Below, in pieces: positions 20,113-54,029 of a stretch of DNA of 64,000 nt (the first letter of the stretch is position 1; each line of letters opens with the position of its first letter). The notes beneath the pieces are model-generated. The model saw only the letters and a list, made by a program, of their open reading frames with translations. It did not search any database and had not been told where the DNA came from. Source of the stretch: an uncultured Megamonas sp. (GTDB lineage: Bacteria > Bacillota > Negativicutes > Selenomonadales > Selenomonadaceae); the NCBI GenBank assembly GCA_963558795.1, contig CAUWIH010000001.1, positions 3,546 to 67,545 on the forward strand, written 5' to 3'. A program made the position numbers and the translations under genes.

Positions 20113-21735
20113 ATGGATGGCCAAACAAAAATTTCTTTAATAGAACTTGCGCAAAAAGAGCAGAAAAATCATAAAAGTTTGATAACAGCAGTAAGAGTAA
20201 ATAATGTTGTTCGTGATTTACAAACTAATGTAAGTGATAAAGATAAGCTAGAATTTATCGATATGAGCACTGAAGACGGTATGCAGGCTTATCAACGTAG
20301 TGTATTATTTTTGATGATGTCGGCTGTAAATTTATTATATCCAGATAAAGATGTAGTAGTAGAACATTCAGTAAATAATGGTATTTATTGTGAATTATTG
20401 CCTAAAGGCGATTTAACAGCTGAAATGGTAGATAATATACGTGAAAAAATGTTAGAAATTGTAAATAAAGCCAAAGAAATAAGAAAAGGGTCTTTACCTC
20501 GTGAGGATGCTGTGGCATTGTTTAGAGAATCTCAACAAATTGCAAAAGCAAAATTAATAGAATCTTTACCACAAGAATCAGTGAGTTTATATTATTGTGG
20601 TGGATATTATGATTATCTTTATGGACCAATGGTATATAATACATCTTTGTTAGATAAATTTGCGATTGATTTTTATGAACCAGGATTAATTGTACGTACA
20701 CCATTAAAAACGAATCCAGTAGAAGTACCACCATCAATGAAGCAAAAAAAATTATCGATGATATTATCTGAAGCAGATAAATGGGCTAATATTTTAAAAT
20801 GTAATTATGTTACGAATTTAAATGAATATATTAATAAACATAATGTTAGTGAATTGATTCGTATATCAGAAGCGTTACATGAAAAGAAAATAGCACAAAT
20901 AGCAGACCATATTGTTGATGATATAAATAATTTACGTTTAATCTTGATAGCAGGTCCATCTTCTTCAGGAAAAACAACATTTGCGCAAAGATTACGTATT
21001 CAATTATTAGTAAATGGTATAAATCCGATATCAATTTCTTTAGATGATTATTTTTTAGATAGAGCACATACGCCAAAAACTCCTGAGGGAGAATATGATT
21101 TTGAATCGGTAAATGCTTTAGATATAGAGTTATTCAATCAACATATGGTAGCACTGTTAAATGGTGAAGAAGTAGAAATACCTGTATATAATTTTGTTAC
21201 AGGAACACGTGAATGGAAAGGTAATGTAGTAAAATTAGAGCCAAATCAACCAATTATTATTGAAGGTATTCATGGATTAAATGAAGAACTTACACGTGAT
21301 GTTCCAAGTGATAAAAAATATAAAATTTATATAAGTGCATTAACACAATTAGCAATTGATGGTCATAATCGCATACCAACAACAGCTGCTCGTCTTATTC
21401 GTCGTATTGTACGTGATAATCAATTTAGAGGAACACAAGCATTAGGCACAATAAAACAATGGCCAGATGTACGCAAAGGCGAAGAAAAAAATATTTTTCC
21501 ATATCAAGAAAATGCTGATATAATGTTCAATTCAGCATTAATATATGAACTTGGAGTATTAAGAAAATATGCAAGACCATTATTAATGAAAATAACTTCC
21601 GAAATACCAGAATATAGTATTTCTAAGCGTTTAACAGATTTTCTTGACTATTTTGAAGATATTACAAATGAAGAAGATATCCCGAATAATTCTATTTTAA
21701 GGGAATTTATCGGTGATTCATGTTTTTTTAAATAA
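20113..21735 (+). CDS. Nucleoside (uridine) kinase fused to an N-terminal ThrRS-like TGS/editing region
   Basis: N-terminus resembles ThrRS N1/N2 (AVRVNN, YQRS, NGIYCE). C-terminus has P-loop AGPSSSGKTT, ISLDDYF and EGIHGLN. Confidence 0.8.
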   Translation: MDGQTKISLIELAQKEQKNHKSLITAVRVNNVVRDLQTNVSDKDKLEFIDMSTEDGMQAYQRSVLFLMMSAVNLLYPDKDVVVEHSVNNGIYCELLPKGDLTAEMVDNIREKMLEIVNKAKEIRKGSLPREDAVALFRESQQIAKAKLIESLPQESVSLYYCGGYYDYLYGPMVYNTSLLDKFAIDFYEPGLIVRTPLKTNPVEVPPSMKQKKLSMILSEADKWANILKCNYVTNLNEYINKHNVSELIRISEALHEKKIAQIADHIVDDINNLRLILIAGPSSSGKTTFAQRLRIQLLVNGINPISISLDDYFLDRAHTPKTPEGEYDFESVNALDIELFNQHMVALLNGEEVEIPVYNFVTGTREWKGNVVKLEPNQPIIIEGIHGLNEELTRDVPSDKKYKIYISALTQLAIDGHNRIPTTAARLIRRIVRDNQFRGTQALGTIKQWPDVRKGEEKNIFPYQENADIMFNSALIYELGVLRKYARPLLMKITSEIPEYSISKRLTDFLDYFEDITNEEDIPNNSILREFIGDSCFFK

Positions 21736-21760
21736 GCTTAGAGTATAAAAATTATAAAAG

Positions 21761-21800
21761 ATAAAGCCCTATGAATTTATGAATTCATGGGGCTTTATTT
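21761..21800. terminator. Bidirectional terminator
   Basis: ATAAAGCCCTATGAATT...AATTCATGGGGCTTTAT inverted repeat between convergent genes. Confidence 0.75.
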
Positions 21801-21811
21801 ATAGTTTTAAA

Positions 21812-22687
21812 TTAATAACAATTTTTATTACAATTACTACAGCCATTGCAGATAATTTTACTAGCACACATATAGCATTTTTGTTTATATTGTTTTTGAT
21901 AATATTTATCCTCAGATATGTTTCGACCAAAATTATCGTATAATTTAAAATTAATTTTTTCACCTTGATAATTCATACCAGATTTAAAAGCCATTTTACT
22001 TTGCAATTCTTTATGTGGTAAGTGATATATTTTTTTATCTTTCATAAATATTGTACCTGTTTCCATAAAACAAAATGTAATATTTTCTTGTACACAATCT
22101 GCACGTAATTTTTTTATCCAATCAAAATTACAAATTCTAGCACCATTATAGTTTTCGCCACCACAAATTACTTGTTGTATCTGTTTAGTTTGTAAGTATT
22201 TTAAGATATTTATTTCACTTAGTATAGGAGCACAAATAATCCCTTTATGTTTAAATGGTAAATCTAATAGTATCGGAATACGTTCATCTGCTCGTTGTTG
22301 ATTTTCACAAGTTACATGTAAAAAAACATTTTCCCAACCATCATGCCAATTATTTGGTAAACATTTATAAATACGTTCAGCTCGTTTAGTTATGAGGATA
22401 AAAATAACATCAGGTCTAGAATGAATGATTTGCCAAGCCTCTTCTCGCCAATTATCAGCCTTGTCTAAGAAAAAATCAGAAGTCATACATACACGAATAG
22501 ATTCACCACTTTTTATTTTGTATTCGCCATGACGATTTTTAGCCAAAGGATAATAAAAATTATTTTTTACTTTATAGATATAGGCACCACTATTACCACG
22601 AATTTTATCAAGATAATACATATAGCAGTTTTTACAGCCTTCACTATATTTTATACAACCATGCCATGGATTCCAAATATCATGCAT
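21812..22687 (-). CDS. DUF5131 / phage Gp37-Gp68-like radical-SAM-like protein with Cys-rich tail
   Basis: WNPWHGC..SEGCKNCY (Cx6CxxC), MTSDFF, LITKR, VICGGE; C-terminal CYMC..IICNGCSNCNKNC. Confidence 0.75.
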   Translation of the reverse strand: MHDIWNPWHGCIKYSEGCKNCYMYYLDKIRGNSGAYIYKVKNNFYYPLAKNRHGEYKIKSGESIRVCMTSDFFLDKADNWREEAWQIIHSRPDVIFILITKRAERIYKCLPNNWHDGWENVFLHVTCENQQRADERIPILLDLPFKHKGIICAPILSEINILKYLQTKQIQQVICGGENYNGARICNFDWIKKLRADCVQENITFCFMETGTIFMKDKKIYHLPHKELQSKMAFKSGMNYQGEKINFKLYDNFGRNISEDKYYQKQYKQKCYMCASKIICNGCSNCNKNCY

Positions 22688-43282: not shown

Positions 43283-45199
43283 TTAGAAATTATATTCTAT
43301 ACCTAAAAGAACAGTTCTACCATTGGCTGGACAATATCCGTCAATAATAGAGCCTATTTTTTCATAAGATTCATTAGTTAAGTTTGCTAATTTTAGATAA
43401 GTAGACCAATTATCATTAATTTTATAGTTAAAGTTAGCGTCAATAATAAAATAGCTACTATCATAATAACTATGATCACGACCAGATACACCAGTGAATA
43501 ATAAATTATTATGCCAAATATCGTCATGATAACTAAAGCGCATTTTATAGCTATTAGGAGCTACTGCATTGACATCAGTTTGCTCATGATTACCAAAATC
43601 AGTTTTAGTGCTAGTATGAGCATAGCTAAGTGTCATATCATATTTTGGACTAAATTCTTGAGTATAATCTAATTGGAAACCTTGTTTTTTCTGGTCAGCA
43701 AAATTTATTGCATGAAATTTTTTATCATTAAGATTGTATTGCCAGCCGATAGGGTCATCAATTTTTTCTAAAAATACATTAAAATTGAGCATACTTTTTT
43801 CAGATAATTTATGACGAATACCGAGGCTACCTTTATAACCGGTTTCAGGTTCGAGGTTTGGATTACCCTTGATATAATCATTATTAAAATAAAGTTCATC
43901 TAAAAATGGTGTAGCATAGATTTCTTGAAGTGAAGCATAAATAGTAGTTTTATCATCAGCTTGATAATTTAAAGCACCATTGGAAACATATTTACCACCA
44001 AATTCACTATTGCTGTTATATAAAGACGTTCCAGTAAGAATTAATTTATCAAAACGGCGAGTAGATTGAAAATAAATAGAAGTATTATCGATACTTTCAT
44101 TATAATTTGCACTAAATGGTTCAGAGTAAGAATTATTTATATTATCTACATTGGTATGACGATAAATTAAACCAGCAGATAAAATATGGTCTTTACTTAT
44201 TTGCCAAGCATCATGCCAATCAATACCACTTGCAGTATTTTCCCAGCGATTATAACTAGGTTCATTTTCTTGTTCAACAAAACCAGTTGGAATATAGCTA
44301 TCTCCTTGTGTATAGTTATGATAAATTGTAACGTAAGCAGGAGTATTAGTTTTTTCTTTATAATTATAAGTCAAATCAAAATGATTGATTAATTTTTCAT
44401 AATTATAATTTTGAGGATAATTTGCAAAAATCCATGTTCCTGTATCATTACTTAAATGGCTATAGTTGAAGGTAAGTGAAGAATCATCTGTTAATTGTTT
44501 ATCAATACGATAAGACATTTCACGACGATTTTTTTCAGAGTTTGGTAATTCGTGATCATCGCCATCTATACCGTGATATTTTTGATAATCAATATTATCA
44601 AAGCCACCAGTAGCGACCCAAGACCAATCTTTGATACTACCGCTAGTTATGGCTTTAGTTTTCCATTGACCATGCTGACCACCAGCGATATCAATAGTAG
44701 TTTCACGATTAGTTCCCTTTTTGGTAATAATATTAATAGCACCGCCAGGTGTATCATAATTTAAAGCATTTGCGCCTACAGCACCATGAACGATTTCAAT
44801 ACGTTCAACATTCATAATAGAAGGTAATAAATCTAAATCGTAAGAGGCACGCCCATTAGTTAAGCCTTTATCCATATTTAAACGACGACCATCAATGAAA
44901 AATGCTACACGGTCATCACCATCGATACGAATAACAGTATTAGCCGTATTGATAGAGCCTGGATTTACGATAACACCATTAGCATAGGTAAGTGCTTCTG
45001 CAACATTTTGGTAATGATTATCGTGAATTTCTTGAGCGGTAATAATTGTAGTATAAGCTGGGGTTGTAACTAAAGCATTATTGTCGATAATACTATGTAC
45101 ATTGGGATAAGGTGCTTCGTTTGCATATGAATTGTTTGGGAAAAGCAACGAGCAACTAGCTAAACCTAAAATTAATAAAGTAGATTGATGTTTATTCAT
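43283..45199 (-). CDS. TonB-dependent outer-membrane receptor
   Basis: Signal peptide; plug motifs IITAQEI..VAEAL..ANGV, IDGRR, ERIEIVHG, GGAINIITK; NPNLEPE; C-terminal GIEYNF beta-signal. Confidence 0.9.
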   Translation of the reverse strand: MNKHQSTLLILGLASCSLLFPNNSYANEAPYPNVHSIIDNNALVTTPAYTTIITAQEIHDNHYQNVAEALTYANGVIVNPGSINTANTVIRIDGDDRVAFFIDGRRLNMDKGLTNGRASYDLDLLPSIMNVERIEIVHGAVGANALNYDTPGGAINIITKKGTNRETTIDIAGGQHGQWKTKAITSGSIKDWSWVATGGFDNIDYQKYHGIDGDDHELPNSEKNRREMSYRIDKQLTDDSSLTFNYSHLSNDTGTWIFANYPQNYNYEKLINHFDLTYNYKEKTNTPAYVTIYHNYTQGDSYIPTGFVEQENEPSYNRWENTASGIDWHDAWQISKDHILSAGLIYRHTNVDNINNSYSEPFSANYNESIDNTSIYFQSTRRFDKLILTGTSLYNSNSEFGGKYVSNGALNYQADDKTTIYASLQEIYATPFLDELYFNNDYIKGNPNLEPETGYKGSLGIRHKLSEKSMLNFNVFLEKIDDPIGWQYNLNDKKFHAINFADQKKQGFQLDYTQEFSPKYDMTLSYAHTSTKTDFGNHEQTDVNAVAPNSYKMRFSYHDDIWHNNLLFTGVSGRDHSYYDSSYFIIDANFNYKINDNWSTYLKLANLTNESYEKIGSIIDGYCPANGRTVLLGIEYNF

Positions 45200-46124
45200 T
45201 GTGAAAATAATCCTTTCCTAAATCTGTATATTTAATTTTTAAATAAATAGTGATAGCAATAAAAAAGTTACAAATATTTTTTAATAAAAATAGTAAATTT
45301 ATAATAAGATAGGTACGTAGAGTAGTTAAAATTCTAGATATTTTAGCATAAATTAAAATAAAAATAAATAAAAATATATTTATTGTAGAATGTTGACGAT
45401 GTTTTTTTACCTTAGTGTACAGTTTTAATAATAAAGTATTGATTGCTTTGCCTATAAGATTACCCAATTGAGAAGTAAGCAAACTCAAAAAAGCAATGAT
45501 TAATAAACTAATATCTACCCCAATAAAATAGATAGCGCCAATACTTAAAAAAGGAATGATTAGTAAAAATAAGATTTTTAAACAGATTAAATTGAAAAGC
45601 ATAATAATAATGTTTCTCAGTAATCGTTTAAACATTAAGGTATGGGTAATGATGAAATTTTTTAAACGAAAAATAGCATTACTAAGTGGCCATAATGATT
45701 TACAAAAAATTTTAAGGTCAGTTAATCTTTGGCGTAAATGGTCAAAAAATTGTAACCAAAATTGACGAAAATCAGTAGGTATTTGACGGATAATTTGGAT
45801 TAAATTATTTGGAGAAAAATTCATTAATAATGATTTAATGAAACGTGAGATATCATTAAATGAAGGAATAAGATTATTAAAACTATGAGCTATTTGACGA
45901 ATGGAAGATAAAATATCTTTAAACGAATTAAAAGATAAATTTATATTCATTAAATGTTGAAGAAAATTACTAAGTGGTAAAGGTAAAATAGTAAAAAATA
46001 AACAAATAATAATACCTAAAAATCGAAATAAAATAACAAAAAATAAATATCTTAAAAATAAAAATGGTTGACGTTTAAAAGCCAAATATTTGATATACAG
46101 TTGGCGTTTTAGCTTAGAAAACAT
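45192..46124 (-). CDS. Hypothetical basic, hydrophobic membrane protein (ORFan-like)
   Basis: 310 stop-free codons in very AT-rich DNA, RBS GAGGTG, 8-nt overlap with the receptor start; no recognisable family motif. Confidence 0.55.
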   Translation of the reverse strand: MFSKLKRQLYIKYLAFKRQPFLFLRYLFFVILFRFLGIIICLFFTILPLPLSNFLQHLMNINLSFNSFKDILSSIRQIAHSFNNLIPSFNDISRFIKSLLMNFSPNNLIQIIRQIPTDFRQFWLQFFDHLRQRLTDLKIFCKSLWPLSNAIFRLKNFIITHTLMFKRLLRNIIIMLFNLICLKILFLLIIPFLSIGAIYFIGVDISLLIIAFLSLLTSQLGNLIGKAINTLLLKLYTKVKKHRQHSTINIFLFIFILIYAKISRILTTLRTYLIINLLFLLKNICNFFIAITIYLKIKYTDLGKDYFHNE

Positions 46125-48269: not shown

Positions 48270-48836
48270 TTAATTATAATATCTTAAATTAGGTATTAGT
48301 TTTTTACCTAAAATAGCAGCAATGATACAAAGAACAATATCTCCAGGTACAGCTAGTAAGAAACAATATAAAAATAAAGGCCATACACCAATTGGAGTAT
48401 TTAAATAAAAATTATTGATGATATAAACATAAATCATGCCAAATCCATAAACAAAGAATAGATTTACAAAATTTACAAAGATTAAATAAGTATAAGATAA
48501 ATGTTGACGTTTTTCCGTTAATTTGCCAGCAAAATAAGCACCAACAGCAAAACCGATTAAATAACCAAATGTTGGCTGGAGAATATATCCAGGACCACCG
48601 CCTTCAGTGAAGATTGGTATACCAATTAAACCAATAATGATATATGTAAATACACTAATAAATCCAAGATTTGCACCCAATAGTAATCCTGCCAAAGTAG
48701 TAAATAATAATTGCAAAGTAAAAGGACAGACAGGAACAGGAATTTTTATGAATGCACCAATAGCAATTAAGGCTACGAATAAAGCACATAAAATCATGTT
48801 TTTAGTAGTTAAAGTTTTTTGGGAATTAGTTGACAT
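48270..48836 (-). CDS. bioY: Biotin ECF transporter S component
   Basis: VPVCPFTLQ, GLIGIPIFTEGGG, PTFGYLIGF, PGD motifs. Confidence 0.92.
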   Translation of the reverse strand: MSTNSQKTLTTKNMILCALFVALIAIGAFIKIPVPVCPFTLQLLFTTLAGLLLGANLGFISVFTYIIIGLIGIPIFTEGGGPGYILQPTFGYLIGFAVGAYFAGKLTEKRQHLSYTYLIFVNFVNLFFVYGFGMIYVYIINNFYLNTPIGVWPLFLYCFLLAVPGDIVLCIIAAILGKKLIPNLRYYN

Positions 48837-48888
48837 AAATAATCACCTTATTTGTATTTTTATAGTTATTAAAGCATATATACACCAT

Positions 48889-48921
48889 ATTGTCAACTAA
48901 AAAAAAGATATGGTTAACCTT
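48889..48921. promoter_or_regulatory. BirA operator upstream of bioY-bioD-bioA
   Basis: ATTGTCAAC-N15-GTTAACC (half-sites at 48891-48897 and 48913-48919). Confidence 0.75.
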
Positions 48922-48927
48922 GTGGAT

Positions 48928-48958
48928 AAAAAAAAACAGCCAATAAAATGGCTGTTTT
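48928..48958 (-). terminator. Terminator of the sorbitol operon
   Basis: CAGCCA-N6-TGGCTG with a long T tract on the minus strand. Confidence 0.65.
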
Positions 48959-48985
48959 AAATTTAGATAGGGATAAGATAGGTTC

Positions 48986-49014
48986 TTGACAGGATAAACT
49001 CTTTATCATATGCT
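48986..49014 (+). promoter_or_regulatory. Orphan sigmaA promoter pointing into the srlD 3' UTR
   Basis: TTGACA (48986-48991), N17, TATGCT (49009-49014); the spacer carries a GATAA-N5-TTATC palindrome. Confidence 0.6.
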
Positions 49015-49020
49015 TGTATT

Positions 49021-49088
49021 AACCTTGATGTGTGCAAATATCAGGTTCTAAGTCACTATGAAACGGCAATTTCGTAGTGGCTTTTTTT
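49021..49088 (+). ncRNA. Candidate ~68-nt two-hairpin small RNA
   Basis: Promoter immediately upstream, hairpin 49021-49047, 13-bp terminator stem 49051-49082 with two G.U pairs that form only on the + strand, then a T run. Confidence 0.55.
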
Positions 49089-49119
49089 ATTAAGCATATG
49101 TATTTTTTCATAATTGTAA

Positions 49120-49935
49120 TTAACCTCTAGTTTTTCCACCAGCTACATTGAATGTAACACCATGAACATAAGAAGCACGATGGCTACTTAAAAACATTAC
49201 CATATCAGCAACTTCGGAAAGTTTACCATCACGACCAAGTGGTGTGGTTTTTGTACTTGTATAATCGGCACGAAGTTGTTCAACTGTTATACCACGAGTA
49301 TACGATAAAGCTTCTTCATAATTTAATGTGCGAAGACCAGTAGCTTCTAAAATACCAGGGGCAACGCCGACAACACGCACATTATATTTTCCTAATTCTT
49401 TTGCCCAAGAACGAGTGAAAGAATTTACAGCGTTTTTAGTTGCAGCATAAATACTTTGTCCTTCAGAGCCTTCAAGACCACTTTCAGAAGACATGTTGAT
49501 GATAACACCTTTGCCATTTTGAACAAATTCATGACCTAAAGCTTGAGCACAAAGATATACACCTTTGATATTTACTGCAGAAACTTTATCAAATACAGCA
49601 TCATCTAATTCATATTTACCATACGGATCATTTTTATCAACTAAAAGACGAGGAATATTAATACCAGCATTATTTACTAAAATGTCTAATTTACCAAATT
49701 TAGCTTTAGCGGCATTGACCATATTTTTTACGCTTTCGGATTTAGTTACATCAGTAATTACATAAAGAAATTCTCCACTACCTTCATGTAAATCATATTC
49801 TGGAGTTTGTGGATTCATATCACAAACTACTACATTTGCACCATTATCCAAGAATGCTTGAACTACAGCTTTACCAATACCTGATGCACCACCAGTAACT
49901 ACAGCTGTTTTACCTTCAAGATCTAACCATGACAT
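49120..49935 (-). CDS. srlD: Sorbitol-6-phosphate 2-dehydrogenase (SDR)
   Basis: TGGASGIG, NNAGINIPRLLVD, SSESGLEGSEGQS.YAATK; last gene of the glucitol PTS operon. Confidence 0.92.
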   Translation of the reverse strand: MSWLDLEGKTAVVTGGASGIGKAVVQAFLDNGANVVVCDMNPQTPEYDLHEGSGEFLYVITDVTKSESVKNMVNAAKAKFGKLDILVNNAGINIPRLLVDKNDPYGKYELDDAVFDKVSAVNIKGVYLCAQALGHEFVQNGKGVIINMSSESGLEGSEGQSIYAATKNAVNSFTRSWAKELGKYNVRVVGVAPGILEATGLRTLNYEEALSYTRGITVEQLRADYTSTKTTPLGRDGKLSEVADMVMFLSSHRASYVHGVTFNVAGGKTRG

Positions 49936-53486: not shown

Positions 53487-53561
53487 TATCGTCACATATG
53501 TGAAGATATATCTCATTTGTTCCGGCAAACATATAATAACACTAATGAAAAATACTGTCAA
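53487..53561 (-). promoter_or_regulatory. Sorbitol operon promoter and downstream palindromic operator
   Basis: Minus strand TTGACA (53561-53556), N17, TGtTATTAT (-10 at 53538-53533); TATCgTCACATATGTGAaGATA at 53487-53508. Confidence 0.7.
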
Positions 53562-53738
53562 TAAAAAATACAAAAAAACACATTAAATAAAAAATTTTGA
53601 AAATTTTAAAATAATAAAGCATATAATAAAGAAATATGTACGATTAATGCTATTCTTGACATGAAAAAATTGATGTCGTATATTATAATTAATTGTAGTT
53701 TTATTAACTAAAGTGTTAAAGTAAACGGAGTGTTTTTT

Positions 53739-54029
53739 ATGATAAATCCAAAATTAAAAGATTCATTAAATGATCAATTATGTAAAGCGGTATTAAAATT
53801 AGAAACTGTTGATGAATGTTATCAATTTTTTGAAGATATTTGTACAGTAAATGAACTAAAATCTTTAGCGCAACGTTTAGAAGTGGCAAGAATGCTTCGT
53901 GCGGGACATACTTATGAAGAAGTAGTGGAAGGTACAGGGGCTAGTACAGCTACTATTAGTAGAGTAAAACGTTGTTTAAATTATGGTGCTGATGGCTATG
54001 ACACGGTATTAAATCGTTTAGAAGAATAA
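53739..54029 (+). CDS. yerC: YerC/YecD TrpR-like DNA-binding protein
   Basis: ECYQFFEDICT..EL..LAQRL.VA.ML..G.TY..V...TGASTATISRV.RCL.YG. Promoter TTGACA-N17-TATATT at 53656-53684. Confidence 0.9.
   Translation: MINPKLKDSLNDQLCKAVLKLETVDECYQFFEDICTVNELKSLAQRLEVARMLRAGHTYEEVVEGTGASTATISRVKRCLNYGADGYDTVLNRLEE

Follow-up and report, generated by a model that had tools for sequence, protein, structure and literature searches.

An uncultured Megamonas species very probably carries, between the stop codon of the sorbitol operon gene srlD and the operon terminator, a separate gene for a small RNA (sRNA) of about 68 nt, which points at srlD. If this predicted gene is real, the balance tilts towards the srl 3'UTR as the main partner of its RNA. 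The two statements combined, namely a real, Megamonas-specific sRNA of about 68 nt acting chiefly on the srl 3'UTR, have about an even chance of being correct as judged from the sequence. The unit is probably an undescribed, genus-specific cis-antisense sRNA. Members of Megamonas are abundant in the gut of humans, dogs and birds, and no described regulatory RNA was found in the literature for Megamonas or for Negativicutes in general. The candidate is tied to sorbitol catabolism, and its comparative support is unusually good. It suggests a compact model in which an operon is controlled from its 3' end by a convergent sRNA, with the promoter of the sRNA occluded by transcription of the target. 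The sRNA would form a clean new family for RNA databases, and current concepts are left unchallenged.

The features are listed in Table 1, where the coordinates refer to the window, that is, the whole stretch of 64,000 nt analysed here. The operon is arranged as srlR-gutM-srlA-srlE-srlB-srlD on the - strand, and is followed by bioY (48270-48836), bioD and bioA.

Table 1. Features of the predicted sRNA gene and the 3' end of the srl operon.
Feature	Coordinates	Strand	Basis or description
-35 hexamer TTGACA of the sRNA promoter	48986-48991	+	sequence, consensus scan
-10 hexamer TATGCT, 17-nt spacer from the -35	49009-49014	+	consensus scan
Predicted sRNA, about 68 nt	49021-49088	+	fold and covariance model
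Hairpin 1, GUGUGCAAAU	49021-49047	+	8-bp stem, one bulge, 10-nt loop
Intrinsic terminator, 14-bp stem with two U.G, loop CGGCAA, T-run	49050-49088	+	
Non-conserved GATAA-N5-TTATC palindrome within the promoter spacer	48993-49007	strandless	
srl operon 3'UTR, holding the antisense of the whole sRNA gene	48925-49119	-	
srl operon intrinsic terminator, stem 48958-48933, T-run to about 48928	48928-48958	-	consensus scan
srlD, sorbitol-6-phosphate dehydrogenase, last operon gene	49120-49935	-	
ORF of 30 codons opposite the sRNA within the srl 3'UTR, considered non-coding	49019-49111	-	

The first-pass annotation, made from the sequence alone, had described a TTGACA-N17-TATGCT promoter, two hairpins and a T run as a self-contained unit without an ORF of its own. 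The promoter was confirmed at 48986-49014 of the + strand, and both hairpins and the T run were found in place, with a terminator stem of 14 pairs. The arms of hairpin 1 are AACCTTGAT (49021-49029) and ATCAGGTT (49040-49047), with one bulged T, and those of the terminator are AAGTCACTATGAAA (49050-49063) and TTTCGTAGTGGCTT (49070-49083), of whose pairs two are U.G. A linker of 2-3 nt separates the two hairpins. The terminator T-run (U7) ends at 49088, and about 30 nt remain between it and the stop codon of srlD. The putative start of the RNA was placed 7-8 nt past the -10 hexamer, and its 3' end within the T-run. According to the ORF list of the window, no ORF follows the unit on the + strand, and its own strand holds no conserved ORF. 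A small protein encoded by the + strand was considered and rejected; the single ATG ORF there has 7 codons and is not conserved. A perfect 9-nt inverted repeat, CATATGCTT / AAGCATATG (49008-49016 and 49092-49100), flanks the transcribed part of the unit and forms a long-range helix in the predicted fold of the srl-sense UTR. It has one mismatch in the sister-species locus L001 and is missing from the M. hypermegale clade.

The closest relatives of the SrlD protein are those of Megamonas (93, 91 and 90% identity), and other Selenomonadaceae come next, which assigns the window to a Megamonas (Negativicutes). The unit is present after srlD in all three Megamonas loci that were obtained via srlD (L001, L002 and the M. 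hypermegale locus L067), and also in a variant from grouse caecum (L080). Metagenomes were scanned with a pattern consisting of the -10 hexamer and 15 nt of the terminator apex, the -35 hexamer not being required, and 54 true copies and 14 chance matches were retrieved. About seven distinct variants of the unit can be distinguished, which fall into two clades: one contains the window, L001, L098 and L083, and the other, the M. hypermegale group, contains L067, L076, L002 and L080. The unit is single copy, and it is always convergent with srlD and directly downstream of it. On its other side, the second clade has a gene for an amino-acid permease followed by a bidirectional terminator in place of bioY. 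Since the neighbour on the far side differs between the clades, the unit is linked to srlD.

All 12 bases of TTGACA and TATGCT and their 17-nt spacing are invariant among the loci obtained via srlD. Every homologue has an unchanged wider -35 motif, CTTGACAGGA, and this holds also for the 54 metagenome contigs, which were retrieved without requiring it. The sequence of the spacer itself differs between lineages and is replaced between the clades. The identity of srlD third codon positions to those of the window is 69% for L001, 47% for L067, 50% for L002 and 64% for L080, and the corresponding values for the terminator hairpin are 94, 85, 82 and 85%. The apical 16 nt of the terminator, TGAAACGGCAATTTCA, are invariant, and the lower stem covaries. 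The sequence of hairpin 1 changes at a roughly neutral rate and its loop is only loosely conserved; the rest of the srl 3'UTR also evolves at about the neutral rate. The first-pass annotation had read the GATAA-N5-TTATC palindrome (halves at 48993-48997 and 49003-49007) as a sign of regulation. This reading was rejected because the palindrome is not conserved: the M. hypermegale group, where the spacer reads GGAATTTTCGTGTAGCG, lacks it, and it is broken by a 49005 A>G change in a close strain.

A covariance model of the family gave 88 bits on the unit, which is the sole strong match in the window, and with the filters off the model detected no second copy or paralogue there. Matches of 22 bits at 21729-21815 were inspected and rejected, as they correspond to an ordinary bidirectional terminator at 21765-21800 (AAAGCCCTATGAATT...AATTCATGGGGCTTT). 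Among the 75 srlD loci of other genera, the model found no homologue outside Megamonas. In a relative from the Selenomonadaceae, L003, whose SrlD is 87% identical, srlD is followed by a terminator and bioY without the unit (L003 3814-3981). The Megamonas unit therefore resembles an insertion of about 130 nt in an ancestral srlD-bioY spacer, and it looks like an insertion specific to the genus.

The search of Rfam that had been proposed with the first reading was run on the whole window, and Rfam 15 at gathering thresholds gave no match, leaving the unit without any family. In a second search of the region 48800-49200 at E <= 10, the best sub-threshold match on the unit was SpF01, which scored 20 bits (E = 2.8) where the threshold is 55. 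A weak match to ctRNA_pND324 at 48834-48876 lies outside the unit and far below its threshold. BLAST searches of phages and plasmids and a pattern scan of viral contigs gave no match to the unit.

The predicted fold differs between the two strands. The 71-nt RNA of the + strand gave -25.2 kcal/mol (z = -5.85), a value reached by none of the 200 shuffled sequences, whereas the - strand of the unit gave -14.3 kcal/mol (z = -2.6). The fold of the - strand is weaker because the two U.G pairs turn into A.C mismatches there. All seven variants form the same two hairpins on the + strand, at -23.5 to -31.8 kcal/mol, compared with -13.4 to -19.8 kcal/mol on the - strand. Across the variants, 99.4% of the cells of the terminator stem are paired, and no pair is broken. 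One pair is altered on both sides (A-U to G-C), three are altered on one side only, between Watson-Crick and G.U, and one U.G pair is fixed. In all cases, the one-sided changes are A.C mismatches on the srl-sense strand. The argument from G.U pairs by which the + strand had first been chosen therefore holds in each of the seven variants. In hairpin 1, the second pair, A-U, is replaced by G-C, and in L083 by G.U, and a bulge or mismatch occurs at the same place in all seven variants. These pairings were read from the folds of the individual sequences, and the compensatory counts for helix 1 in the alignment were set aside because MAFFT shifts hairpin 1 by 1 nt between the clades. As there are only about seven distinct variants in two clades, the covariation of the stems is suggestive and falls short of being statistically decisive.

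Promoter-like matches are frequent in AT-rich DNA, and the promoter could be such a chance match beside a bidirectional srlD terminator, with no gene present. Around the unit, loose promoter-like matches are not commoner than in shuffled sequence (7 in 2 kb, 12 expected). In the 64 kb window, with both strands counted, the stringent pattern TTGACA-N16-18-TATNNT is rare, with four sites found and 1.5 expected, and two of the three other sites belong to the region that holds the divergent promoters of the srl operon and the trpR-like gene. We regard the comparison across species as the strongest argument against chance: the hexamers, their spacing and both hairpins are kept despite near-saturated synonymous divergence. 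Furthermore, the hairpin has two mismatches on the - strand and no U-tract after it, and the srl transcripts pass through it, as described below. It is thus hardly credible that there is no gene.

The RNA data consist of assembled, unstranded contigs of public runs, which were aligned mainly to the sister-species locus L001; a search for small-RNA or miRNA libraries gave none. In at least eight RNA runs, contigs extend without a break from srlD across the complete unit to L001 3990-3994 (about 48968-48972 of the window), and this end lies 5-8 nt before the stem of the srl terminator. In X26 and X29, the contig ends are fused to the Illumina adapter. In X29, branches with depths of about 89, 102 and 13 end at this point and about 26 continue towards bioY; about 89% of the depth stops there. 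The end is either the limit of random priming before the hairpin or a processing site. Their continuity with srlD and the read-2-type adapter at the end favour the srl sense strand, the contigs themselves being unstranded. Because they run from srlD through the unit, the unit is located inside the srl 3'UTR in antisense, and the overlap claimed at first reading is thus covered over its whole length by srlD-continuous, unstranded contigs. In the sister species, the hairpin 49050-49083 does not stop the srl transcripts. It had been argued that this hairpin is not the srlD terminator and that a separate one lies further on. Both points were upheld, since the contigs pass through the unit and end just before the counterpart of the - strand stem listed in Table 1. 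The srl terminator has a homologous hairpin in L001, and in the M. hypermegale group a non-homologous bidirectional terminator occupies the same relative place. Adapter junctions at the predicted ends of the sRNA were looked for in X29, the deepest run (about 310x over srlD), and none were present in its unstranded contigs. The runs compared with the M. hypermegale locus L067 were without that lineage.

In several runs the UTR is better represented than the srlD coding region. In X32 and X33, a contig covering L001 3812/3813-3991/3993 is the only one in 1.7 kb, and the depth of the srlD coding region is 0; in X35, the same contig has a depth of 21.5 compared with 10-13 for the coding region. 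Only the last 60-90 nt of srlD and the UTR are covered in X20, X21 and X28, and a contig of X7 matches 48929-49088 of the window with 12 unmatched bases. These contigs suggest that the srl 3'UTR region gives rise to a stable RNA of about 180-215 nt, longer than the predicted sRNA, with the caveats that they are unstranded, that their depth values are flat and that some run labels are uncertain. The species is probably a 3'UTR fragment of the srl sense strand, and it is perhaps stabilized or generated by pairing with the sRNA. As a separate observation, the UTR-only contigs (L001 3812-3993, about 48968-49122 of the window) carry a snap-back chimera formed via TTAATAATTATATTATTAA, an AT palindrome located at the stop codon of srlD.

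The functional RNA might then be this srl-sense, 3'UTR-derived sRNA of about 180-215 nt, which shares the terminator of the operon, and the promoter on the + strand would then be silent or of secondary importance. The UTR-only or UTR-deeper contigs of the runs above and the fold of the srl 3'UTR (z = -4.1) agree with such an RNA. However, it leaves unexplained why TTGACA and TATGCT are invariant at a fixed distance of 17 nt while the spacer is free, and why the one-sided changes in the stem are all G.U on the + strand and A.C on the srl-sense strand. The remainder of the UTR is near neutral, and the contigs are unstranded and in part uncertain in their run labels. As a replacement for the + strand sRNA we therefore consider the 3'UTR-derived RNA quite unlikely; as one member of a sense/antisense pair it is compatible with the cis-antisense sRNA.

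For the cis-antisense sRNA, the layout of the locus suggests the following mechanism. The near-consensus sigma-70-type promoter would start the RNA at about 49021, and the RNA would fold into the two hairpins and end at its own intrinsic terminator. Since every srl mRNA holds its exact complement, a duplex of about 68 bp is possible, which would lie downstream of the coding region of srlD and upstream of the srl terminator hairpin. The invariant CGGCAA loop and its mirror loop would probably be the first parts to make contact. The duplex may then be a substrate for a double-strand-specific RNase, and the cleavage would alter where the srl message ends and, through this, how stable it is. We lean slightly towards destabilization, which would damp leaky expression of srl, although the sign is not readable from the sequence. 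Heavy srl transcription would run over the sRNA promoter and thereby shut it off, and we therefore infer that the sRNA and the operon are expressed inversely.

A purely cis-acting antisense RNA needs no invariant apex of 16 nt, and thus a further constraint must act on the sequence. The apex leaves room for a function in trans or in protein binding. The sRNA may accordingly be real and act mainly in trans, in which case its convergent position would make its level an inverse read-out of srl transcription. The CGGCAA loop with the upper stem, or the UG(N)GCAAA loop of hairpin 1, or both, would bind distant mRNAs or a protein. The invariance of the apex above a covarying lower stem, which a cis role alone would not demand, speaks for such a role. 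So does the U-rich tail behind the strong hairpin, as a tail of this kind is the usual chaperone-binding module of trans-acting sRNAs. On the other hand, the loop of hairpin 1 is only loosely conserved, and none of the 72 translation-initiation regions of the window pairs with the sRNA better than with shuffled sRNAs (the best pairing is -26.0 kcal/mol, whereas the mean of the best hits of the shuffles is -27.9 kcal/mol). We regard a mainly trans-acting sRNA as a minor possibility.

A larger scheme joins these elements in a device of two RNAs, in which a stable, processed srl 3'UTR fragment is accompanied by the convergent sRNA, the promoter of the latter being silenced by read-through from the operon. 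The sRNA would serve as an inverse meter of sorbitol transcription, its CGGCAA apex would act in trans on other genes for carbon sources, and the abundant 3'UTR fragment would titrate the sRNA as an mRNA-derived sponge. It is unlikely that all of these parts hold jointly. If they do, this would be the first description of an RNA-based regulatory circuit in gut commensals of the Negativicutes.

As the unit points into srlD, the promoter and hairpins might also form a leader or attenuator, with regulated read-through of the terminator producing a long antisense RNA across srlD-srlB, by which the operon would be silenced. Riboswitch-controlled antisense RNAs are known. However, the terminator is strong (14 bp, U7), hairpin 1 stands apart from it, no alternative antiterminator pairing is predicted, and no riboswitch or leader family matched. 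The regulators of the operon are the SorC-type SrlR and GutM, which are DNA-binding proteins, and no BglG-type RNA antiterminator is encoded among them. For these reasons an attenuator is very unlikely. The particular case of a PTS RAT/antitermination leader was tried and rejected: hairpin 1 lies 2-3 nt from the terminator without overlapping it, and there is no BglG/LicT-type regulator. Antitermination is unlikely because the regulators bind DNA and the two hairpins do not overlap.

The srl sense strand contains a short reading frame past srlD, and a protein of 27-41 aa could be made from it, with the + strand RNA as its antisense regulator in the manner of a type I toxin-antitoxin system. 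Convergent pairs overlapping at their 3' ends are typical of the type I systems of Bacillus, and the locus has this arrangement. The KLPFHSD frame is open in the variants examined and has 27-41 codons in most of them, and AGGAAG-N6-ATG, with a good ribosome-binding site, precedes it in L002, L080 and L076. However, outside the core that is fixed by the RNA hairpin, a frameshift prevents alignment of the peptides from the two clades. Non-synonymous changes are numerous in the part within hairpin 1, the position of the start codon varies, and the frame is broken in L067 and in the T-run length variants L097, L124, L130, L141 and L099. The product would be hydrophilic, has no Pfam match and was missed by the gene callers. 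In the first reading no toxin ORF had been seen. This stands in that a conserved small toxin ORF was not found among the variants, the frame being hydrophilic and not conserved as a protein; it needs correction in that an srl-sense ORF is open in most of them. We judge a functional protein here to be most improbable.

Compared with known systems, the unit has three features of cis-antisense sRNAs: a predicted promoter of its own on the opposite strand, its own terminator for a short RNA, and transcription of the opposite strand across the gene in at least eight RNA runs at L001 (unstranded contigs). GadY of Escherichia coli is a cis-antisense sRNA over the 3'UTR of gadX; the pairing leads to double-strand-specific processing, and the target is stabilized. 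Both GadY and the Megamonas sRNA are small RNAs with their own promoters opposite the 3'UTR of a target, and in both the pairing, which for Megamonas is a prediction, would take place past the coding region. GadY differs in that it belongs to another phylum and shares no homology of sequence or structure (no Rfam match), and its stabilizing role was tested experimentally, whereas the Megamonas sRNA is predicted. MtlS of V. cholerae acts on mtlA of the mannitol PTS, and its level is set inversely by the opposing transcription of the target (PMC6597380); it works through extensive complementarity and proximity (PMC4615234). The Megamonas sRNA is likewise an antisense sRNA at a PTS locus for a sugar alcohol, and it may be controlled by target transcription in a similar way. 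However, MtlS covers the 5'UTR and blocks translation, whereas the Megamonas RNA covers the 3'UTR and does not reach a ribosome-binding site, and the two are not homologous. By analogy, GadY and MtlS appear to be the closest functional precedents, neither being a homologue.

Two further likenesses concern form. RatA/txpA and SR4/bsrG of Bacillus subtilis are also convergent: the 3' ends overlap by about 70 nt, and the small RNA is structured and has its own promoter and terminator. At the Megamonas locus, however, there is no conserved hydrophobic toxin ORF, and the overlapped transcript is that of a catabolic operon. Plasmid ctRNAs share the two hairpins, the length of about 70 nt and a loop-loop contact as the likely first step, whereas the Megamonas unit is chromosomal and has no rep gene and no plasmid, phage or viral match.

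Several observations were made on the neighbouring genes. A likely bioY promoter lies on the - strand (48868-48919), with TTGACA at 48896-48891, a 17-nt spacer and TTTAAT. An imperfect inverted repeat, GGTTAACC-N14-GTTGACAA (48919-48890), overlaps this promoter and resembles a BirA-type biotin operator, and similar GTTAAC...GTTGAC pairs are present in L001 and L003. The region immediately past bioA (43283-46124, - strand) encodes a TonB-dependent outer-membrane receptor of 638 aa and holds a 310-aa ORF without a Pfam or NCBIfam match. At the other end of the operon, between srlR and a gene of the Trp-repressor family (53730-54029), two consensus-like promoters are placed back to back at 53533-53561 (- strand) and 53656-53684 (+ strand). 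These are probably the promoter of the srl operon and that of its divergent neighbour.
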